Shown: in pieces, positions 53,140 through 62,509 of the stretch
How the letters are laid out: each line of letters starts with the position of its first letter
Position numbering within the stretch: the first letter of the stretch is position 1
Source of the DNA: an uncultured Chloroflexia bacterium
GTDB lineage: Bacteria; Chloroflexota; Limnocylindria; Limnocylindrales; CSP1-4
DNA: 64,000 nucleotides
Direction: 5' to 3'
NCBI GenBank assembly: GCA_963813535.1
Contig: CAWEZH010000002.1
Coordinates: 512,001-576,000 of the forward strand
Position numbers and translations under genes: made by a program
The notes under the pieces: generated by a model
What the model was told of the DNA's origin: nothing
Seen by the model: the letters and a program-made list of their open reading frames with translations, nothing else
The model's database searches: none

Positions 53140-53649
53140 ATGACCGCACGGACCGACCGGATCGATCAGCTGTTGCGTGAGGAGATCGGCTCGATCGTGG
53201 CGCGGGACGTGGCGGATCCACGGATCGGGTTCGCCACGATCACCAAGGTCGAGACGACCCCGGACTTGCGGCATGCCAGGGTGTGGGTGAGCGTCATCGG
53301 GCAGCCGAAGGAACGCTCGCAGACCATCGCGGCACTCGGCCGCGCCATGCCGTTCGTCCGCCACGAGCTCGGCAGGACGCTGCGCCTGAAGCGGATCCCC
53401 GATCTCCACGTGGAGCTCGACGACACCGCCGAACGGGGGACACGCGTGATGCATCTCCTCGACGAGCTTCGGGAGGGGAGCGCGCCCGAGGAGGACCTGC
53501 CGCTCGGCGAGACATTGCCGACGCCGGTCCCCCGGGTCCAACACGACGGCGATACGACCGAGGAGCCACCCTCCGCGGTGATCCCGCCCAAGCCGCGCAA
53601 GCGCCGCGGCCGGGCACTCGTCCAGCGCACGAGCCGGCGGCAGCGATGA
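53140..53649 (+). CDS. rbfA: ribosome-binding factor A
   Basis: RTDRIDQLLREEI, DPRI, V.TTPDLRHARV, LRLKRIP.L. Confidence 0.93.
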   Translation: MTARTDRIDQLLREEIGSIVARDVADPRIGFATITKVETTPDLRHARVWVSVIGQPKERSQTIAALGRAMPFVRHELGRTLRLKRIPDLHVELDDTAERGTRVMHLLDELREGSAPEEDLPLGETLPTPVPRVQHDGDTTEEPPSAVIPPKPRKRRGRALVQRTSRRQR

Positions 53650-54662
53650 CGGTGGATCTCACGCCCTTCCTCGGTACCGTGCCGGACGTCGTCGTCGAGC
53701 GGATCCGCACCGCCAAGCGCGTGCTGGCCGTCGGTCACGAGAACCCCGATGCGGACACGGTCGGGGCAAGCCTCAGCGTCGTCCGCATCATCGAGCGGTT
53801 CGGTGGCACGGCGGATCCTGTCTGCAGCGACCCCGTGCCGCCGCATTACGACTTCCTCGAGGGCGTGGAACGGTTCCGGACGGACCCGGACCCGGACGCC
53901 GACTACGACCTGCTCGTTGTCTCCGATTGCGCTACGTTCGATCGCGTCGGGGCCGTGGGCGAGCGTCACCGCGACCTGTTCGACCGCCTGCCGCGCGTCG
54001 TCATCGACCACCACGCGTCGAACGAGGCACTCGCCGAAGCCGACTGGATCGAGCCGGACGCCGCGGCGACCTGCGAGATGGTGGCGCTGCTGGCGACGTG
54101 TCTCGGCATCCCGCTCGAATCGGAACCGGGGCTCGCGACCGCGTTGATGGCCGGCATCGTGATGGACACCGCGACCTTCGCGCATCCGAACGCGACGCCG
54201 CGGACACTGGCGGTCTCGGCGGCCCTTCTGGAGGCCGGTGCGCCGCTCTCCGAGATCTCCCGTCGCCTGTATCGCTCGAAGCCGGCCGAGCAACTGCGTC
54301 TCTTCGGACGGGTCCTCGATCGGATGGAGACCTTCGACGAGGGGCGGGTCGTCGCCTCGACGCTGTTCGATTCCGACGTCAAGGCGGTCGGGGCCGCGCC
54401 GCCGCACTCGGAAGGGATCATCGACATGCTGGCGCAGGCGGATGGCGCCGAGGTGGCGATCCTGTTCAAGGAGGCGGGCGAGGCGACTCGCATCAGCGTC
54501 CGGACCAAGCCCGGTGGCGTCGATGCGACCGTCCTCACCGGGCTGTTCGGCGGCGGCGGGCATGCACGGGCGTCGGGTGCGACCGTGCAGCTTCCGATCG
54601 ATCGGGCGCACGACGCCGTGCTTGCCGAGGCTCGAAAGGCCGCGGCGGCCGTCGCGCGCTGA
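53646..54662 (+). CDS. nrnA: DHH/DHHA1 family nanoRNase/pAp phosphatase
   Basis: HENPDAD, IDHH, MDT, GGGGHARASG. Confidence 0.9.
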   Translation: MTVDLTPFLGTVPDVVVERIRTAKRVLAVGHENPDADTVGASLSVVRIIERFGGTADPVCSDPVPPHYDFLEGVERFRTDPDPDADYDLLVVSDCATFDRVGAVGERHRDLFDRLPRVVIDHHASNEALAEADWIEPDAAATCEMVALLATCLGIPLESEPGLATALMAGIVMDTATFAHPNATPRTLAVSAALLEAGAPLSEISRRLYRSKPAEQLRLFGRVLDRMETFDEGRVVASTLFDSDVKAVGAAPPHSEGIIDMLAQADGAEVAILFKEAGEATRISVRTKPGGVDATVLTGLFGGGGHARASGATVQLPIDRAHDAVLAEARKAAAAVAR

Positions 54663-55623: not shown

Positions 55624-56363
55624 TGGACGTGGTCGCCGGCGTCACGGGGCTGCGGCCGGAGCAAGGACCCATCTTCACGGTCATCGGCGTCTTCGATGGG
55701 CTGCATCGAGGCCATGCCTACCTCCTGGATCGCCTCGTCCAGGAGGCCCGTACCCGCGACGCCCGTCCGTGCGTGATCACGTTCGACCATCATCCCGACG
55801 AGGTGCTCACCGGTTCGGCTCCGCCACTCCTGCTCGACCCCGACGAGCGGATCGAGCGATTGGCCGCCGCGGGTGTCGCGGTGGCGGTCGTCCAACCGTT
55901 CGACGACGTGGTCAGACAGACCTCGTACGAGGACTTCGTCGATCTCATCCGGAGGAACACGGAGTTCCGTGGGTTGGTGATGACACCGGACGCGGCCTTC
56001 GGCTATCAGCGGCAGGGGACACCCGAGGCGCTCCAGACGCTCGGCGCGCGCCTCGGCTTCGACGTCGTCGTGATCGAACCGCTGGTGATCGACGGCGGTC
56101 CAGTCCGTAGCACCGAGATCCGCACGGCCATCGAACGTGGTGACCTGGCCGGCGCCAGTCGGCTGCTCGGCCGGCCGGTGGGCCTTCGAGGTCAGTCCCG
56201 GGACGGCCGGATCAGCTTCGCCTGGCCCATGGCCCTGCCACCGGACGGCGAGTACCGCTGCCGGCTCGACGGTCGGGACGGCATCGCCACGGTGACGGGT
56301 GGTACCGTCCGCGTCCCCGACGGGATCGCCGACGGACCCGTTCGACTGGAGTTCATCACGTGA
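55620..56363 (+). CDS. ribF: FAD synthetase (RibF-like) with degenerate/truncated riboflavin kinase domain
   Basis: IGVFDGLHRGH, TFDHHP, VRSTEIR, LLGRP; no GFPTAN motif; 247 aa. Confidence 0.8.
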   Translation: MMDVVAGVTGLRPEQGPIFTVIGVFDGLHRGHAYLLDRLVQEARTRDARPCVITFDHHPDEVLTGSAPPLLLDPDERIERLAAAGVAVAVVQPFDDVVRQTSYEDFVDLIRRNTEFRGLVMTPDAAFGYQRQGTPEALQTLGARLGFDVVVIEPLVIDGGPVRSTEIRTAIERGDLAGASRLLGRPVGLRGQSRDGRISFAWPMALPPDGEYRCRLDGRDGIATVTGGTVRVPDGIADGPVRLEFIT

Positions 56364-56875
56364 CCGATACGCGCTGGCACCTCGCGCAGCTCAACGTGGG
56401 CCGCCTGGTCGCCCCGGTCGGATCAGCCGTGATCGAGGGCTTCCGGGTCCAGCTCGAGCCGATCAACGCCCTGGCCGACACCCATCCCGGGTTCGTATGG
56501 CGCCTCCAGACCGACGCCGGCGACGCCACCTCGATCCGCCCGACCGAGGACGACCTGTTCCTCATCAACATGAGCGTGTGGACGTCGCTCGAGGCACTCC
56601 GCGCGTTCACCTACACGACGGACCATGTCCAGGTGCTGCGCCAGCGCCGGTCCTGGTTCGAGCAGCTCGCCTCGGCGCACCTGGTCCTGTGGTGGGTGCC
56701 GGCCGGCCATATCCCGACCGTCGATGAGGCGATGGAGCGGCTGGATCGAATCCGTCGCGACGGACCGACACCCGCCGGATTCACGTTCCGCTCACCATTC
56801 GCGCCCGAGGCGGATCACCCGGGCGAGTCACTTGTCGACGCGGAGTTCTGCTGGCCCGAGCTCGCGGCGTCCTGA
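56360..56875 (+). CDS. DUF3291 family protein
   Basis: HLAQLN, INALA...PGFVWRL, NMSVW, RR.WF, VLWWV..GH.P, GPT..FTF. Confidence 0.85.
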   Translation: MTDTRWHLAQLNVGRLVAPVGSAVIEGFRVQLEPINALADTHPGFVWRLQTDAGDATSIRPTEDDLFLINMSVWTSLEALRAFTYTTDHVQVLRQRRSWFEQLASAHLVLWWVPAGHIPTVDEAMERLDRIRRDGPTPAGFTFRSPFAPEADHPGESLVDAEFCWPELAAS

Positions 56876-56880
56876 GCGGC

Positions 56881-57444
56881 CTACAGCCCCGGCTGCCAGA
56901 GGGGCTCGTCGATGCCACGTTCGAGGTTCTCGTAGCGCGCCATGACGAAGAGCGCGTCCGACAGGCGGTTGAGATAGGGCAGGACAAGCTTGCCGATCGC
57001 CTCCTCGCGCGCCAACGTGATGGTCTCGCGTTCCGCTCGCCGGCAGATGGTCCGAGCCACATGGAGTTGTGCCGCGCCTGGGGCGCCGCCCGGCAGCAGG
57101 AAGTTCGTCAACGGTCCGACGCGCTCGTTCAGCTCGTCGATGAGCCCTTCCAGCCGCTCGACGTGCCGCGGTTGGACGGTCGGGATCCGGGCGCGCCGGC
57201 CGTCATCGTTCGGCCAGCACAGGTCCGATCCGAGGTCGAACAGCTCGTTCTGGATGCCCGCGAGCTCCGTCGCGAGCCGTTCCGAGAGGCCCAGCGCCAG
57301 CGCGACGCCGATGGCCGAGTTCAGCTCATCCACCGTCCCGTATGCACGGACCCGCGCCGAATCCTTCGGTACGCGCCGCCCGCCACCGAGCCCGGTCAGC
57401 CCTTCGTCGCCGGTCTTCGTGTAGATCTTGGTGAGCCGCGGCAT
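56881..57444 (-). CDS. pduO: PduO-type cob(I)alamin adenosyltransferase
   Basis: [41 protein letters not shown]. Confidence 0.93.
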
Positions 57445-57509
57445 GACCGCAGGATAGTCGAGCGTGCGGGCGACACGGGTCCGCGCGCGTGGCGCGTTCC
57501 GGGTCGCTC

Positions 57510-57518
57510 TGCTACCAT
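57510..57518 (+). promoter_or_regulatory. putative extended -10 element TG-C-TACCAT for rpsO-pnp
   Basis: About 50 nt upstream of the rpsO start. Confidence 0.5.
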
Positions 57519-57568
57519 CCGCCGGTCATAGAGGTAGAAAGAAGCAACAGTTCGTGTCGGAGGACCGA

Positions 57569-57838
57569 GTGCCGCTCGCGCGGGAACAGAAGCAGGAGAT
57601 CATCGTCGGGTACGCCACAAAGGATGGCGATACCGGCTCGCCGGAGGTCCAGATCGCGCTCTTGACCGAGCGCATCAAGGAGCTCACGGACCATCTTCGA
57701 CGCTTCCCCAAGGACAACCATTCGCGTCGCGGCCTCCTCAAGCTCGTCGGCCAGCGCCGCCGCCTTCTCGCGTATCTCATGAAGAAGGACAGCGCGCGCT
57801 ACCGGACCGTCATCGGACGGCTCGGACTCCGCCGCTAG
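57569..57838 (+). CDS. rpsO: 30S ribosomal protein S15
   Basis: [32 protein letters not shown]; GGAGG SD before GTG 57569. Confidence 0.97.
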
Positions 57839-57959
57839 GTCGCCGCTCACGGATCTCGGGCCGATCGCCCGGGGTCCTCGCACACACGGCGCCAGCTGCG
57901 AAGCAGGCTGACCCGCCCGCGGGTCGTTCACTCCTCCACGACAAGGAGGATCGTTTCCC

Positions 57960-60548
57960 TTGTCTCAGACATTCGAGACACAGCTCGGTGGTCGCACGCT
58001 GACCATCGAGACCGGCAAGCTCGCACGGCTCGCCGGCGGCTCCGTCACCGTCCGCTACGGCGACACCATGGTGCTCGGCACCGCCAACCGCTCCGAGCCG
58101 CGGCCCGGGCTCGACTTCTTCCCGCTCACCGTCGATTTCGAGGAGCGCATGTACGCCGCGGGCAAGATCCCGGGCGGCTTCATCAAGCGCGAGGCCCGTC
58201 CATCGGAGAACGCGATCCTCGCGGCCCGACAGACGGACCGGCCCATCCGCCCGCTCTTCCCCGAGGGCTACAAGGACGATGTCCAGCTGGTCATCACGGT
58301 CCTGTCGACCGACCAGGAGAATCTCCCTGACGTCATCGGCACGATCGCGGCATCGACGGCGCTGACCATCAGCGAGATCCCGTTCAACGGCCCCGTCGCA
58401 TCGGTCCGCGTGGGCCGCATCGACGGCGAGTTCGTCGTCAACCCGGTCTTCAGCCAGCTCGCCGATTCGGAGCTGGACCTGATCGTCGCCGGCACGCGCG
58501 ACGCGATCATGATGGTCGAGGCCGGCGCCAAGCTCCTGCCCGAGGACGTGATGGCCGAGGCCATCCTGTTCGGGCATCGCGCCCTGCAGCCGATCGTCGA
58601 TCTCCAGGAGGAGATCCAGAAGGCCGTCGGCAAGGCCAAGCGCATCCCGTACCTCGAGCCGACGACAGGTTCCGTGCTCGAATTCGCCTCCGCGACGGAC
58701 GCGAAGCGAGAACTCGTCGTCATCGACACCGAGACGACGGGCACCGATCCCAAGATGTCCGACCTGCTCGAGGTCGCCGCGGTGAAGGTCAAGGGCACCG
58801 AGATCGTCGATCGCTGGTCGACCTTCGTGAACCCGGGCCGGCCCATCGTCGGCAACCAGATGCACGGCATCACCGACAAGGACGTCCAGGGCGCACCGAG
58901 CCCGCGCGAGGCCGCGGATCAGCTGCTTGCCTTCGTGGGCGAGGCGAAGATCGTCGGCCACAACGTGGGCTTCGACCTCGGCTTCATCGAGGAGGCCAAG
59001 GGCGACGGGTTCCGGTTCCAGCCCGGCACCTACCTCGACACCCTGACCATCGCCCGCGAGGGCTATCCCGGGGCCGAGTCGTACAAGCTCGGTGACCTGG
59101 CGCGCTTCTTCGGCGTCGAACTGAGCCAGGGCCATCGGGCGCTGCCGGATGCCGAGGCGACCGCGAGCCTCCTGATCTGGTTCGCGAACGATCTGCCCGG
59201 CCGGATCTCGACCCTCCGGACGGCCATCGCCGACGCGGTCCGCGCCCAGCGCTCGGGTGGCGATACGACCAGCCTGCTCGAATCGGCGCGCCGCGATGCA
59301 CGCGTGAGCAAGAGCCTGTTCAGCCTCATCCAGAAGAAGACGGTCCGTCAGCTCGTCCTCGACGAGGGCATCCGCATCGACGGGCGCGGTCTCACCGAGA
59401 TCCGGCCCATCAGCGTCGAAGTCGGGCTCGTCCCGCGCGCCCATGGCTCGGGCCTGTTCACGCGTGGTGAGACGCAGGCGCTGACGGTCGCCACGCTCGG
59501 CTCGTCCTCGGACGTGCAGCGGATCGACACGATCAGCCCGGAGACCGAGAAGCGCTACCTCCACCACTACAACTTCCCGCCGTACAGCACGGGCGAGAAC
59601 AAGATGATGCGCGGGCCCAGCCGGCGTGACATCGGCCACGGCCATCTCGCCGAGCGTGCGCTCGTGCCGGTCCTTCCGGACCACGACGAGTTCCCGTACG
59701 TGATCCGTCTCGTCAGCGAGTGCGTGACCTCGAACGGCTCGACCTCGATGGCCTCGACCTGCGGATCGACCCTCGCACTCATGGATGCCGGCGTGCCGAT
59801 CAAGGCACCGGTGGCCGGCGCGGCGATGGGTCTCATCAGCGAGCCCGACGGCCGGTACGTCGTCATGACCGACATCCTCGGCAAGGAGGACTCGATCGGC
59901 GACATGGACTTCAAGGTGACCGGAACACGGGACGGCGTGACCGCCCTGCAGATGGACATCAAGGTCCAGGGCATCAGCGAGGCGATCATCCGCGATGGCC
60001 TCAAGCAGGCCCTCGCGGCTCGGCTCGAGATCCTCGACAAGATGACGGCCGTCCTGCCCGAGTCGCGCGAGGAGATGAGCGACTTCGCACCGCGCATCAT
60101 CACGATCAAGATCAACCCGGAGAAGATCCGCGACATCATCGGCAAGGGCGGCTCCATGATCCGCAAGATCCAGGAGGAGACCCAGACCGAGATCAACGTC
60201 GAGGACGACGGGACGGTCGAGATCGCCGCGGTGTCGGGTGAGAACTCGCGCAAGGCGATCCAGTGGATCGAGAGCCTGACCCGCGAGGTCGAGATCGGTG
60301 CGCTGTACCTCGGCAAGGTCACCCGGATCATGGGTTTCGGGGCCTTCGTCGAGATCCTGCCCGGCAAGGAAGGCCTGGTCCGCATCGGCGAGCTGGCCGA
60401 CTACCACGTGCCCACTGTCGAGGACGTCGTGTCCGTCGGCGATGAGGTGATGGTCGTCGTGACCGAGATCGACCGACAGGGCCGCGTCAACCTGTCGCGC
60501 AAGGCCGCGATGCAGCGCCACCTGGCAAAGGAGCCCGTCGAGGCGTGA
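57960..60548 (+). CDS. pnp: polyribonucleotide nucleotidyltransferase (PNPase) with inserted DEDDh 3'-5' exonuclease domain
   Basis: RPH1 ([27 protein letters not shown]), DEDDh insert, RPH2 ([39 protein letters not shown]), KH (IIGKGG), S1 (FGAFVE). Confidence 0.96.
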
Positions 60549-60704: not shown

Positions 60705-61778
60705 ATGCCCAACGTGACCAGCAAACCTCTCACGGTCGCGATCGTCGGCGCTACCGGGGTCGTCGGCGGGACGATGATCCGGATGCTGCTCGAGCGCGAG
60801 TTCCCGTTCGGGGAACTGCGCCTGCTGGCCAGCGCACGCAGCGCCGGCACCGAGGTCGACGTGGCCGGCACGAGACACACCGTGCAGGAAGCGACGCCCG
60901 ACGCCTTCGAGGGCGTCGACATCGCGCTGTTCAGCGCCGGTGGCGATACGTCCAAGGCGCTCGCGCCCGAGGCGGCCAGGCGCGGCACGACCGTGATCGA
61001 CAACTCGAGCGCATGGCGGATGGACCCGACCGTGCCGCTCGTGGTCAGCCAGGTCAACCCGGATGACCTCGGATGGCACGAGGGCATCGTCGCCAACCCG
61101 AACTGCTCGACGATGCAGCTCGTGCCGGTCCTGATGGCGCTGCGCGATGCCGTCGGGCTCGAGCGCGTCGTCATCGACACATACCAGGCGGTCTCGGGAA
61201 CCGGTGGCAAGGCCATCACCGAGCTCCAGCGCCAGGTCGAGGCACACGTCAACGACGAGCCCCTGAGCGCGACGGTCTACCCGCACCAGATCGCGTTCAA
61301 CGCCCTGCCGCAGGTCGATGTCTTCCTCGACAACGGCTACACCAAGGAGGAGTGGAAGGTCGTCACGGAGAGCCGCAAGATCCTGCACCTGCCGGACCTG
61401 CGCATCTCGTGCACAGCCGTTCGTGTCCCCGTCTTCGTCGCTCACTCCGAGGCCGTCCACGTCGAGACCATCGACCCGATCACGCCCGAGCGCGCACGCA
61501 CGCTGTTCGCGGCCGTGCCTGGCGTCGTCGTCCAGGACGATCCAGGCACCTCGACGTACCCGCTCGCGACGCAGGCCGCCGGGAGCGACGAGGTCTACGT
61601 CGGTCGGGTTCGCCAGGACGCGTCGATCCCCGCGGGCCGCGGCCTTGCCTTCTGGGTCGTCAGCGACAACCTGCGCAAGGGCGCCGCCACGAACGCCGTC
61701 GAACTTGCCGAGATCTTGGTCGACCGCGGGTGGGTCAAGGCCGCCGCGACACGGGACGCGGCCGGATCCCCGGCGTGA
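60705..61778 (+). CDS. asd: aspartate-semialdehyde dehydrogenase
   Basis: VGATGVVG, IDNSSAWRM, ANPNCST, TYQAVSG, DNLRKGAATNA. Confidence 0.97.
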   Translation: MPNVTSKPLTVAIVGATGVVGGTMIRMLLEREFPFGELRLLASARSAGTEVDVAGTRHTVQEATPDAFEGVDIALFSAGGDTSKALAPEAARRGTTVIDNSSAWRMDPTVPLVVSQVNPDDLGWHEGIVANPNCSTMQLVPVLMALRDAVGLERVVIDTYQAVSGTGGKAITELQRQVEAHVNDEPLSATVYPHQIAFNALPQVDVFLDNGYTKEEWKVVTESRKILHLPDLRISCTAVRVPVFVAHSEAVHVETIDPITPERARTLFAAVPGVVVQDDPGTSTYPLATQAAGSDEVYVGRVRQDASIPAGRGLAFWVVSDNLRKGAATNAVELAEILVDRGWVKAAATRDAAGSPA

Positions 61779-62509
61779 CCGACGCCGAGCGCCGTGCGGC
61801 GCTCGAGGCGATCGCCGCGGAGGTCCGCGATTGCACCCGCTGCCGACTCCACGAGACGCGGACGCACGCGGTGCCTGGCGAGGGCGACCCGTCGACCGAG
61901 GTCGTGTGCGTCGGTGAGGGCCCCGGTCAGAACGAGGACCGGGAGGGCCGACCGTTCGTGGGTCGCGCCGGTGGCCTGCTCGTGAACCTCCTCGGGCACA
62001 TCGGCTGGACGCGCGACGACGTGTTCATCACGAACATCGTCAAGTGCCGCCCGCCCGGCAACCGCGACCCGGAACCCGACGAGGTCGCCGCCTGCGCGCC
62101 GTACCTCCGCCGCCAGCTCGAAGTGCTCGACCCGGCCGTCGTGGTGACCCTCGGTCGCCATTCGATGGGCCGCTTCATGCCGGGCGCCCGCATCTCGCAG
62201 GCGCACGGCACGACCCGACCTGCCGATCCGGCGACGGGTGCCCCCGATGCCACGGTCTTCGCCATGTACCACCCGGCCGCGGCCCTGCGCACGCCGGCGA
62301 TCGAGCGAGAGTCGTACGAGGATGTCGCCCGCATCCCTGGCGTCCTGATCGAAGCGCGGGAGCGCCGCCGCGAGCACCGTTCGGCCGCCCGGGACGCCGC
62401 CCGTGCCGCTGCCGAGGGAGCGGGTGCGGCGCCTCGGACCGCAGCGACCATGGCGAGGGTCGCCGGCGCCGACCCGGACGACACGACCGACCAACTCACC
62501 ATCTTCTGA
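61775..62509 (+). CDS. uracil-DNA glycosylase family 4 ([4Fe-4S])
   Basis: CTRCRL, GEGPG..ED..GRPFVG, NIVKCRPP.NR.P, YHPAA. Confidence 0.93.
   Translation: MTDAERRAALEAIAAEVRDCTRCRLHETRTHAVPGEGDPSTEVVCVGEGPGQNEDREGRPFVGRAGGLLVNLLGHIGWTRDDVFITNIVKCRPPGNRDPEPDEVAACAPYLRRQLEVLDPAVVVTLGRHSMGRFMPGARISQAHGTTRPADPATGAPDATVFAMYHPAAALRTPAIERESYEDVARIPGVLIEARERRREHRSAARDAARAAAEGAGAAPRTAATMARVAGADPDDTTDQLTIF

Follow-up and report, generated by a model that had tools for sequence, protein, structure and literature searches.

What a second, complete exonuclease does inside a polynucleotide phosphorylase (PNPase) is the question raised by the locus described here. The gene, pnp, lies in a stretch of 64,000 nucleotides from an uncultured Chloroflexia bacterium (assembly GCA_963813535.1, contig CAWEZH010000002.1, positions 512,001 to 576,000 of the forward strand), the whole of which is called the window below. 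Few RNA enzymes are as conserved and as well studied as PNPase, and no part of it is less understood than its helical domain; at this very position, an initial annotation of the window noticed a DEDDh exonuclease domain and proposed a hybrid nuclease. Our analysis confirms the architecture and finds it in three families of the class, which form a Chloroflexota lineage of soil and freshwater, and it suggests that the inserted domain may have taken over the work of the exonuclease module of DinG.

Architecture of the window PNPase

On the whole, the gene is confirmed to be a PNPase with a complete DEDDh domain between its RNase PH halves. Its features are given below, with residue numbers of the translation in amino acids (aa).

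57960..60548, + strand: pnp open reading frame, TTG start, 862 aa plus stop
57960..58643, + strand: first RNase PH half (RNase_PH and RNase_PH_C), residues 1-228, with VGKAKR at its end (Pfam; TIGR03591 profile 2-229)
58644..58715, + strand: loop and one helix (237-247) before the exonuclease, residues 229-252 (DSSP of the predicted models)
58716..59171, + strand: DEDDh (DnaQ-like, PF00929) 3'-5' exonuclease domain, residues 253-404 (Pfam E 1e-28; PDB sequence matches; Foldseek)
58716..58742, + strand: ExoI motif VVIDTETTG, residues 253-261, with D256 and E258
58953..58976, + strand: ExoII motif VGHNVGFD, residues 332-339, with H334, F338 and D339
59133..59153, + strand: ExoIII motif HRALPDA, residues 392-398, with H392, R393 and D397
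59139..59366, + strand: three linker helices (394-431, 436-447 and 451-469 in the model; DSSP, pLDDT about 85-95)
59289..59387, + strand: remnant of the canonical helical domain, residues 444-476 (PF03726 profile 48-80 of 81)
59397..60059, + strand: second RNase PH half with the phosphorolytic site (best Pfam stretch 480-613)
59730-59747, + strand: SNGSTS, residues 591-596, phosphorolytic site in the second PH half
59886-59915, + strand: ten-residue motif ED..GDMDFK, residues 643-652, phosphorolytic site in the second PH half
60099..60272, + strand: KH domain (KH_1), residues 714-771 (Pfam)
60288..60503, + strand: S1 domain, residues 777-848 (Pfam)

The Pfam scan of the 862-aa protein recognises RNase_PH twice (two stretches, E 3.1e-52) and RNase_PH_C twice, with RNase_T (PF00929) between them, matched over profile positions 1-163 of 164 with 101 bits against a cut-off of 24. 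KH and S1 follow, so the domain order is the one that the initial annotation expected, and the duplicated RNase PH core, KH and S1 that membership of the PNPase family requires are all present, with the phosphorolytic site intact. Of the PF03726 helical-domain model, the C-terminal part alone is recognised. The PNPase equivalog TIGR03591 scores 949.4 bits against a cut-off of 525.05 in two stretches, profile positions 2-229 and 280-688, which shows about 50 profile positions swapped for about 210 residues. When the full-length predicted model is compared by Foldseek, the top matches are all PNPases (TMt 0.66-0.85). The canonical PNPases of the same class (group f4) and of the phylum have about 75 residues between their PH halves in our alignment, and the linker that defines the family is all-helical and of about 75-80 residues; the window protein has 243 residues there, and is therefore filed as a PNPase variant.

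The translation bears out the coordinates and motifs given by the initial annotation. VGKAKR occupies residues 223-228 and ends at 58643, RIDGR occupies residues 472-476 and starts at 59373, and 243 residues stand between them. Further insert motifs are FVNP (289-292), HGIT (302-305), LDTL..AR (359-366) and YKLGDLA (375-381). The G+C content is 0.65-0.70 over the insert, the same as in the rest of the gene and without a step. The genome (3.28 Mb in 3 contigs, 92.9% complete) has one PNPase only, according to the TIGR03591 search.

Distribution and reality of the fusion

We then present the distribution of the insert in a class sample of 121 genomes (groups f1, f2, f3, f4 and f83, the window's own genome G000 being in f1) and in a phylum sample of 401 genomes. 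The full 243-residue insert (query residues 1, 2 or 3 to 242 or 243) is found inside pnp in 36 of 36 f1 genomes, own genome included, in 5 of 5 f2 genomes, which are only 1.0-1.4 Mb in size, and in 39 of 40 f3 genomes. The open frames that bear it are about 830-1050 aa long, with one of 1265. The f3 exception is G422; the match of G460, which is counted, breaks off at residue 165, in a frame of 410 aa. In f4 (37 of 39 genomes) and f83 (1 of 1), the exonuclease core alone is matched, roughly residues 15-195. The f4 matches that were scanned are the N-terminus of a DinG-like protein (PF00929, DEAD and Helicase_C_2), and two f4 genomes examined have a canonical PNPase of about 737 aa with a single TIGR03591 stretch, 2-688. 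These tallies, like those of PF00929, PF13307, PF00773 and DHH given below, take in unpublished genomes, which contribute to the counts only, without any sequence taken from them (G427, G442, G446, G451, G461 and G467 in the class; G344, G173, G272, G227 and G145 in the phylum); when they are left aside, the insert stands at 37 of 38 in f3, the core match at 33 of 35 in f4 and the DinG helicase domain discussed below at 34 of 35 in f4, and the conclusions are unchanged.

Public databases give the same picture. Residues 225-480, searched by word index against 5.8 billion proteins, yield 1563 matches among 8000 scored candidates; among the matches listed, 120 of 120 carry PF00929 together with PF01138, at 83-100% identity, mostly with about 860 aa, a few being truncated, and from many assemblies. 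Their automatic names are PNPase or 'DNA polymerase III epsilon subunit family exonuclease', the latter being misleading on the many genes that bear it. A pattern scan of species-representative genomes, using a query of 253 residues (the insert with flanking PNPase residues), finds 354 relatives, the best 80 of which are 71-97% identical over at least 237 of the 253 query residues; the record titles of these 80 are uncultured Chloroflexia, Candidatus Limnocylindrales or Limnocylindria, and Chloroflexota bacterium. The carriers, known as genomes from metagenomes, are not rare.

Outside f1-f3, the architecture is absent from the 150 matches listed for the 401-genome phylum sample, which cover the exonuclease core only; two of them that were scanned with Pfam are a DinG-like protein (L040) and an exonuclease-GIY-YIG-UVR protein (L039). 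A HMMER search of 1.84 billion representatives with residues 200-500 gives 31,784 matches, 63 of them with E up to 1e-30, and the fusion is not found outside the lineage among the best 150. The matches that extend into the PNPase flanks include P0123, in which Pfam recognises PNPase and PF00929; nine others scanned comprise one exonuclease-GIY-YIG protein, one DinG-like protein, two PolC, three BRCT-fused proteins, one fused to FAN1/VRR-NUC and one partial PF00929. The nearest ESM Atlas clusters with RNase_PH and RNase_T are all commonest in Chloroflexota. An independent fusion of PNPase with a distant DEDD domain would score too low for these lists. Because the fusion is confined to f1-f3 in the samples and lists searched, we see a single origin, in the ancestor of f1, f2 and f3. 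Apart from this, three loci labelled Anaerolineaceae (L097), Candidatus Eisenbacteria (L131) and Candidatus Dormiibacterota (L140) have inserts 81-87% identical to that of the window, which we would put down to mislabelling or mis-binning and not to gene transfer. The nearest non-PNPase matches also include unusual DEDDh proteins, such as P0148 (1045 aa), with three tandem DEDDh domains, GIY-YIG and UVR; P0169, P0176 and P0244 have two DEDDh domains and BRCT, and P0199 has FAN1-HTH, VRR-NUC and DEDDh.

That the gene could be a chimeric misassembly or an annotation artefact was considered and is rejected, with a probability that is practically negligible; nothing was found in its favour. The architecture is lineage-wide, as counted above in genomes, in the 80 best representative loci and in the 120 listed matches; the frame is open, without a G+C break, and the exonuclease evolves under constraint (see below). 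Moreover, contigs of the independent run X3 bridge both junctions: record 26 covers 58499-58818 and record 32 covers 59066-59500, with 16 and 13 differing letters. Of the contigs listed, none extends over all 1201 bases, and run X2 leaves some bins uncovered. Contigs from RNA libraries (X1 and X15) cover parts of the exonuclease and its flanks, though such contigs do not prove transcription. A recent foreign insertion is likewise rejected, as there is no G+C break and the insert is common to three families.

The initial annotation knew of no described PNPase of this kind, and none with a DEDD-type insert turned up in our full-text literature search, outside which most subscription journals lie. 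The hybrid is therefore undescribed as far as found, but it is not a one-off, being fixed in three families of the class and public though unremarked. What is new is a conserved arrangement of two well-known catalytic modules; the sequences themselves are already public.

Fold, catalytic residues and selection

To describe the conservation of the insert, 44 genes were extracted and aligned as full PNPases, 61-92% identical overall. In all 44, the catalytic set D256, E258, D339, H392 and D397 is invariant, so that the DEDDh motif is complete as noticed at first, and so are T259, T260, H334, F338 and R393, while the identity of the insert drops to 38-44% in f3. The residues N592, G593, S594, T595, S596, D644, D648, D650, K652, R555, R556 and H560 of the second PH half, which we take to correspond to the catalytic residues of E. 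coli PNPase, are invariant as well. In the same alignment, five basic residues on the linker helices (R428, R444, R445, K459 and R463) do not vary, and they could line a path for nucleic acid.

The insert modelled alone is predicted with high confidence (pLDDT 92.8, pTM 0.89), while the full-length model is moderate (pLDDT 71.2, pTM 0.70), with low confidence in core loops and S1. Both models have the exonuclease fold from 251 to about 393 and a helix ahead of it (237-247), which may be the first helix of the PNPase helical domain. The ExoIII helix continues unbroken into a helix of 38 residues (394-431), followed by helices 436-447 and 451-469 and then by the second PH half. We read these models as an exonuclease apparently inserted into the former helical domain, after its first helix and before its second.

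The predicted fold agrees with the DEDDh assignment. Foldseek places S. aureus DinG (8zef, 9ii8) best, together with PolC (9qrn, root-mean-square deviation 2.1 over 169 columns), and also finds a DnaQ domain (TMt 0.83), epsilon (0.77), ExoX and RNase T. With TMt of 0.72-0.83 to stand-alone exonuclease domains, the modelled insert has the RNase H-like alpha/beta fold of the superfamily. In the PDB sequence search, the PolC exonuclease (2e-22) and DinG (8zef, 8.5e-19) precede DnaQ and epsilon (about 1e-10 to 1e-12) and RNase T (4e-4). A match at the level of the oligoribonuclease (Orn) or RNase T family was not obtained, as there is no Orn chain among the 12 PDB matches and neither family is in the best 25 of NCBIfam. 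Instead, the DinG-type profile NF005981 matches the insert at E 1e-38. The DinG-type profiles NF005981 and TIGR01407 give 129-133 bits, far below their cut-offs of 548-789, and Pfam finds neither PF13307 nor a DEAD helicase domain in the window PNPase; therefore the protein is related to DinG via the exonuclease domain only.

Compared with the closest relative, the ratio of nonsynonymous to synonymous substitution rates (dN/dS) comes to 0.17 in the exonuclease and 0.23 in the linker helices, against 0.07-0.09 in the core. This ratio was taken from the closest pair only and deeper pairs were set aside as unreliable, because dS stays near 0.5 in them, saturating under the strong G+C codon bias. 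The insert, as judged from the sequences, is under purifying selection, about twice as relaxed as the core. Altogether, it is very probably real and catalytically competent.

Ancestry of the exonuclease domain

The ancestry was analysed with two trees of exonuclease domains, one with 128 rows under a PMSF mixture model, and one with 57 rows under LG+G4, rooted on PolC, GIY-YIG and VRR-NUC exonucleases. In both trees, all PNPase inserts form one clade (SH-aLRT 94 and 95), sister to P0205, P0269 and P0218 (support 90 and 82). P0205 and P0269 are DinG-like according to Pfam, and P0218 (349 aa) shows the exonuclease domain alone. In the enclosing group, 8 of 8 full-length members scanned with Pfam are DinG-like (P0205, P0269, P0270, P0262, P0226, P0214, L037 and L038), and the PolC-type domains fall outside the DinG-type group that holds the insert. 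The tree of the exonuclease domain called for earlier thus puts the insert among DinG-type domains, and its DinG-type ancestry is shown at the level of sequence. The 273-aa protein P0170 also groups with the PNPase inserts in both trees; it is apparently a stand-alone exonuclease and matches the insert at 45% identity, with the first part of the helix after ExoIII included in the match. Its last 90 or so residues look out of frame, so that both a broken gene and a free-standing relative are conceivable.

The DinG exonucleases of the class itself (f4 and f83) form a clade separate from the inserts in the trees. When they were forced to be sisters, the resulting tree was rejected by the approximately unbiased (AU) test (log-likelihood difference 47.5, p-AU 0.0016, 57 rows), which was run under LG+G4 only, a model able to wrongly reject some true clades. 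Therefore, the insert is probably not a simple relocation of the resident DinG gene.

The DinG helicase domain Helicase_C_2 (PF13307) shows a clear pattern in the class. It is found in 38 of 39 f4 genomes and 1 of 1 f83, but in 1 of 36 f1 (G000 included), 0 of 5 f2 and 1 of 40 f3 genomes, the two latter matches being atypical, one in a 2041-aa frame (f1) and one in a 107-aa fragment at a contig end (f3). The profile search gives no PF13307 match in the own genome. Meanwhile, most genomes of the class sample have exactly one PF00929 match, which in the own genome is the pnp insert and in f4 sits on DinG, not on a polymerase partner. Since PF00929 is mostly single and PF13307 largely restricted to f4 and f83, the pattern is one DnaQ-like exonuclease per lineage, carried either by DinG or by PNPase. 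In addition, a second, small PF00929 gene is seen in the f2 genomes G133, G309, G357 and G459 (frames of 206-246 aa, E 1e-15 to 1e-17), and is missing from most f1 and f3 genomes.

Comparison with known systems

Like canonical PNPase (TIGR03591; solved for E. coli, Caulobacter, Streptomyces, Coxiella and M. tuberculosis), the window protein has the PH halves, KH and S1, the phosphate- and metal-site motifs, and the rpsO-pnp pair. Unlike it, it has a second catalytic domain, some 165-170 extra residues inside the helical domain. Another difference is at the C-terminus, where canonical Chloroflexota PNPases have an Arg/Gly-rich tail and the window PNPase has none. This tail has about 40-60 residues and forms the end of canonical PNPases both in f4 and in a second Chloroflexota family (L056:1474-3684, L057:1360-3570 and L058:1417-3705), while three insert-bearing PNPases in the alignment (window 60504-60548, L031 and L036) stop soon after S1.

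The best structural match of the insert is the N-terminal DEDD exonuclease of DinG (S. aureus 8zef/9ii8; B. subtilis), but in DinG it precedes a helicase, whereas here it is internal, no helicase is present and the host is an RNA phosphorylase. The PolC exonuclease (2p1j, 9qpc) and DnaQ/epsilon have the same fold and DEDDh motifs, and in PolC the exonuclease is likewise inserted in another domain (PHP), as in P0225; the polymerase context of these enzymes is missing here. The eukaryotic RNA exosome combines an RNase PH-like ring with the hydrolytic Rrp6 (DEDD type) and Rrp44. Its ring is catalytically dead and its hydrolases are separate subunits, whereas the window PNPase keeps its phosphorolytic residues and has the hydrolase in cis. 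The hybrid is in this respect a parallel, among bacteria, to the joining of PH ring and DEDD hydrolase in the exosome. In E. coli (PNPase and Orn), in human (PNPase and REXO2) and in the Caulobacter degradosome with RNase D, one pathway is served by a phosphorolytic enzyme and a DEDD exonuclease (PMC7261184, PMC4245959). Those partners are separate proteins of the Orn/REXO2 and RNase D branches, whereas the insert is of DinG/PolC type and fused.

Proposed function and alternatives

What we infer for activity, substrates and trimer geometry is as follows. The window protein would be a two-chemistry 3'-to-5' exonuclease, that is, a complete phosphorolytic PNPase with a grafted DinG/PolC-type DEDDh exonuclease, whose head would be catalytically active and hydrolytic in the 3'-5' direction. 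The graft would follow the first helix of the helical domain, with the ExoIII helix running on through its 38-residue extension to the remaining helices. The trimer would then bear three hydrolytic heads on the ring face opposite KH/S1, by each side pore. This placement, suggested already by the initial annotation, appears reasonable because the helical domain lies on that face in solved PNPases. In E. coli PNPase, it is on top of the torus with S1/KH at the bottom, forms part of a pore that is a second route to the active site, and may influence how nucleoside diphosphates (NDP) and phosphate reach this site (PMC2723993). In human PNPase, a lysine of the helical domain contacts RNA near the active site (PMC12685370). 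The lineage represents a natural experiment on what occupies the side pore of the PNPase ring.

As for the role, the head would have taken over the job of the exonuclease module of a DinG-type exonuclease-helicase, in genomes without DinG, a reading to which we give a probability of roughly 0.55. Reports on B. subtilis give the two partners common substrates. The DEDD domain of B. subtilis DinG degrades single-stranded DNA (ssDNA) and the RNA of RNA:DNA hybrids, and S. aureus DinG is reported to prefer single-stranded RNA (PMC12525004). B. subtilis PNPase binds RNA:DNA hybrids, whose RNA it digests, and reduces R-loops (PMC13251995, preprint), and it degrades ssDNA in double-strand-break repair (PMC2709576, PMC3241651). 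Recent B. subtilis work puts both enzymes at RNA:DNA hybrids (PMC12525004, PMC13251995), and their link is testable. The idea of a role in ssDNA and repair, raised at first among others, gains support from the DinG-type ancestry and from the complementarity with DinG. More tentatively, the fusion might be a 'Rosetta stone', telling that PNPase and the DinG-type exonuclease share a substrate (the RNA 3' end in RNA:DNA hybrids or R-loops, and ssDNA ends, where replication and transcription conflict). The helicase would have been discarded and the nuclease grafted onto the ring, giving a bacterial single-chain counterpart of the exosome design with both chemistries active; we regard this as a possibility on the unlikely side.

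Several points weigh against the DinG-successor role. Whether the substrate is RNA or DNA cannot be told from sequence. The pnp context has nothing repair-specific in it. The full-length model, only moderate at pLDDT 71.2, does not set the orientation of the heads relative to the pore, and the exonuclease and linker show about double the evolutionary rate of the PNPase core. The rejection of inserts as sisters of the resident DinG exonucleases makes a simple in-genome relocation improbable; the nearest DinG-like proteins are P0205 and P0269, and relatives of P0205 are named Actinomycetota or Coriobacteriia. Finally, the complementarity with DinG represents one evolutionary event (one clade against its sisters) that is not replicated, and is therefore suggestive, not statistical.

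Alternatively, the head may be a pure helper in RNA decay without any link to DinG, finishing the short oligonucleotides of PNPase or backing up 3' trimming at low phosphate, as a fused version of the division of labour between PNPase and Orn/REXO2. The host is an RNA exonuclease itself and the site is beside the active-site pore (PMC2723993), and human PNPase acts in succession with REXO2, which is a DEDDh enzyme (PMC7261184). The nuclease inventory also seems inviting: RNase II/R (PF00773) is found in 0 of 121 class genomes, and the own genome has no PF01612 match (RNase D / Pol A exonuclease type) and no second PF00929, so that these bacteria apparently manage with a very small set of known 3' exoribonucleases. 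However, f4 has the same gaps with a canonical PNPase, and compensation for a missing RNase II/R is thus rejected, as PF00773 does not separate the groups. DHH matches are found in 121 of 121 class genomes, mostly two (RecJ-sized and NrnA-sized) and in a few one or at least three, and NrnA-like DHH/DHHA1 genes occur with and without the insert, one of them in the window at 53283-54659. A missing nanoRNase is therefore unsupported as a distinguishing factor, and the role of finishing short oligos, one of several suggested by the initial annotation, gains no specific support. As the supposed triggers do not separate carriers from non-carriers, and as the domain is of the DinG/PolC branch and not of Orn/RNase T, this explanation is weakened, and we hold it to be rather doubtful. 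As to R-loops, one RNase HI-like match (32.7 bits) and one match to RNase HII are present in the own genome, so that no gap is obvious there.

If instead nuclease chemistry were irrelevant, the DEDDh fold might bind nucleic acid, gate the side pore or dock partners. The supposed influence of the helical domain on NDP and phosphate access (PMC2723993) would fit this, as would the faster evolution of the insert and the missing Arg/Gly-rich tail, which might point to altered interactions. Catalytic residues are usually lost from DEDD domains that have become inactive, however, and here the five catalytic residues and their five invariant companions are kept in all 44 sequences from three families, at insert identities down to about 40%; a non-catalytic role is for this reason improbable. 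It could also be argued that the only DnaQ-like domain of the genome supplies epsilon-type proofreading in replication, given that the insert is the sole PF00929 match and that the PolC exonuclease and epsilon are among its structural neighbours. Yet the domain is covalently built into an RNA enzyme that is presumably a trimer, and f4 has its single PF00929 domain on DinG. Many bacteria proofread via the PHP domain of DnaE, and we consider a proofreading function very improbable.

Gene neighbourhood

The gene is located in an ordinary translation/RNA cluster with the order nusA-infB-(NrnA-like)-truB-ribF-rpsO-pnp, a context that favours neither the DinG-successor nor the RNA-decay explanation. 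The neighbours mentioned in the text are listed below.

53283-54659, + strand: NrnA-like gene with DHH and DHHA1 (domain scan)
56360-56875, + strand: DUF3291 gene, between ribF and rpsO
56881-57444, - strand: putative PduO-type cobalamin adenosyltransferase, between ribF and rpsO
57464..57838, + strand: probable rpsO (ribosomal protein S15; translation), open frame directly upstream of pnp
57810-60521, - strand: 903-aa open frame antisense to pnp
60705-61778: asd, downstream of pnp
61073-62509: frame whose C-terminal part is a family-4-like uracil-DNA glycosylase, downstream of pnp

In our reading of the translation, the frame directly upstream is likely S15, which would make the usual rpsO-pnp pair. 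The assignment of the cobalamin adenosyltransferase comes from its sequence only. As for the 903-aa antisense frame, we take it as a stop-poor shadow frame typical of DNA with 68% G+C and not as a gene.

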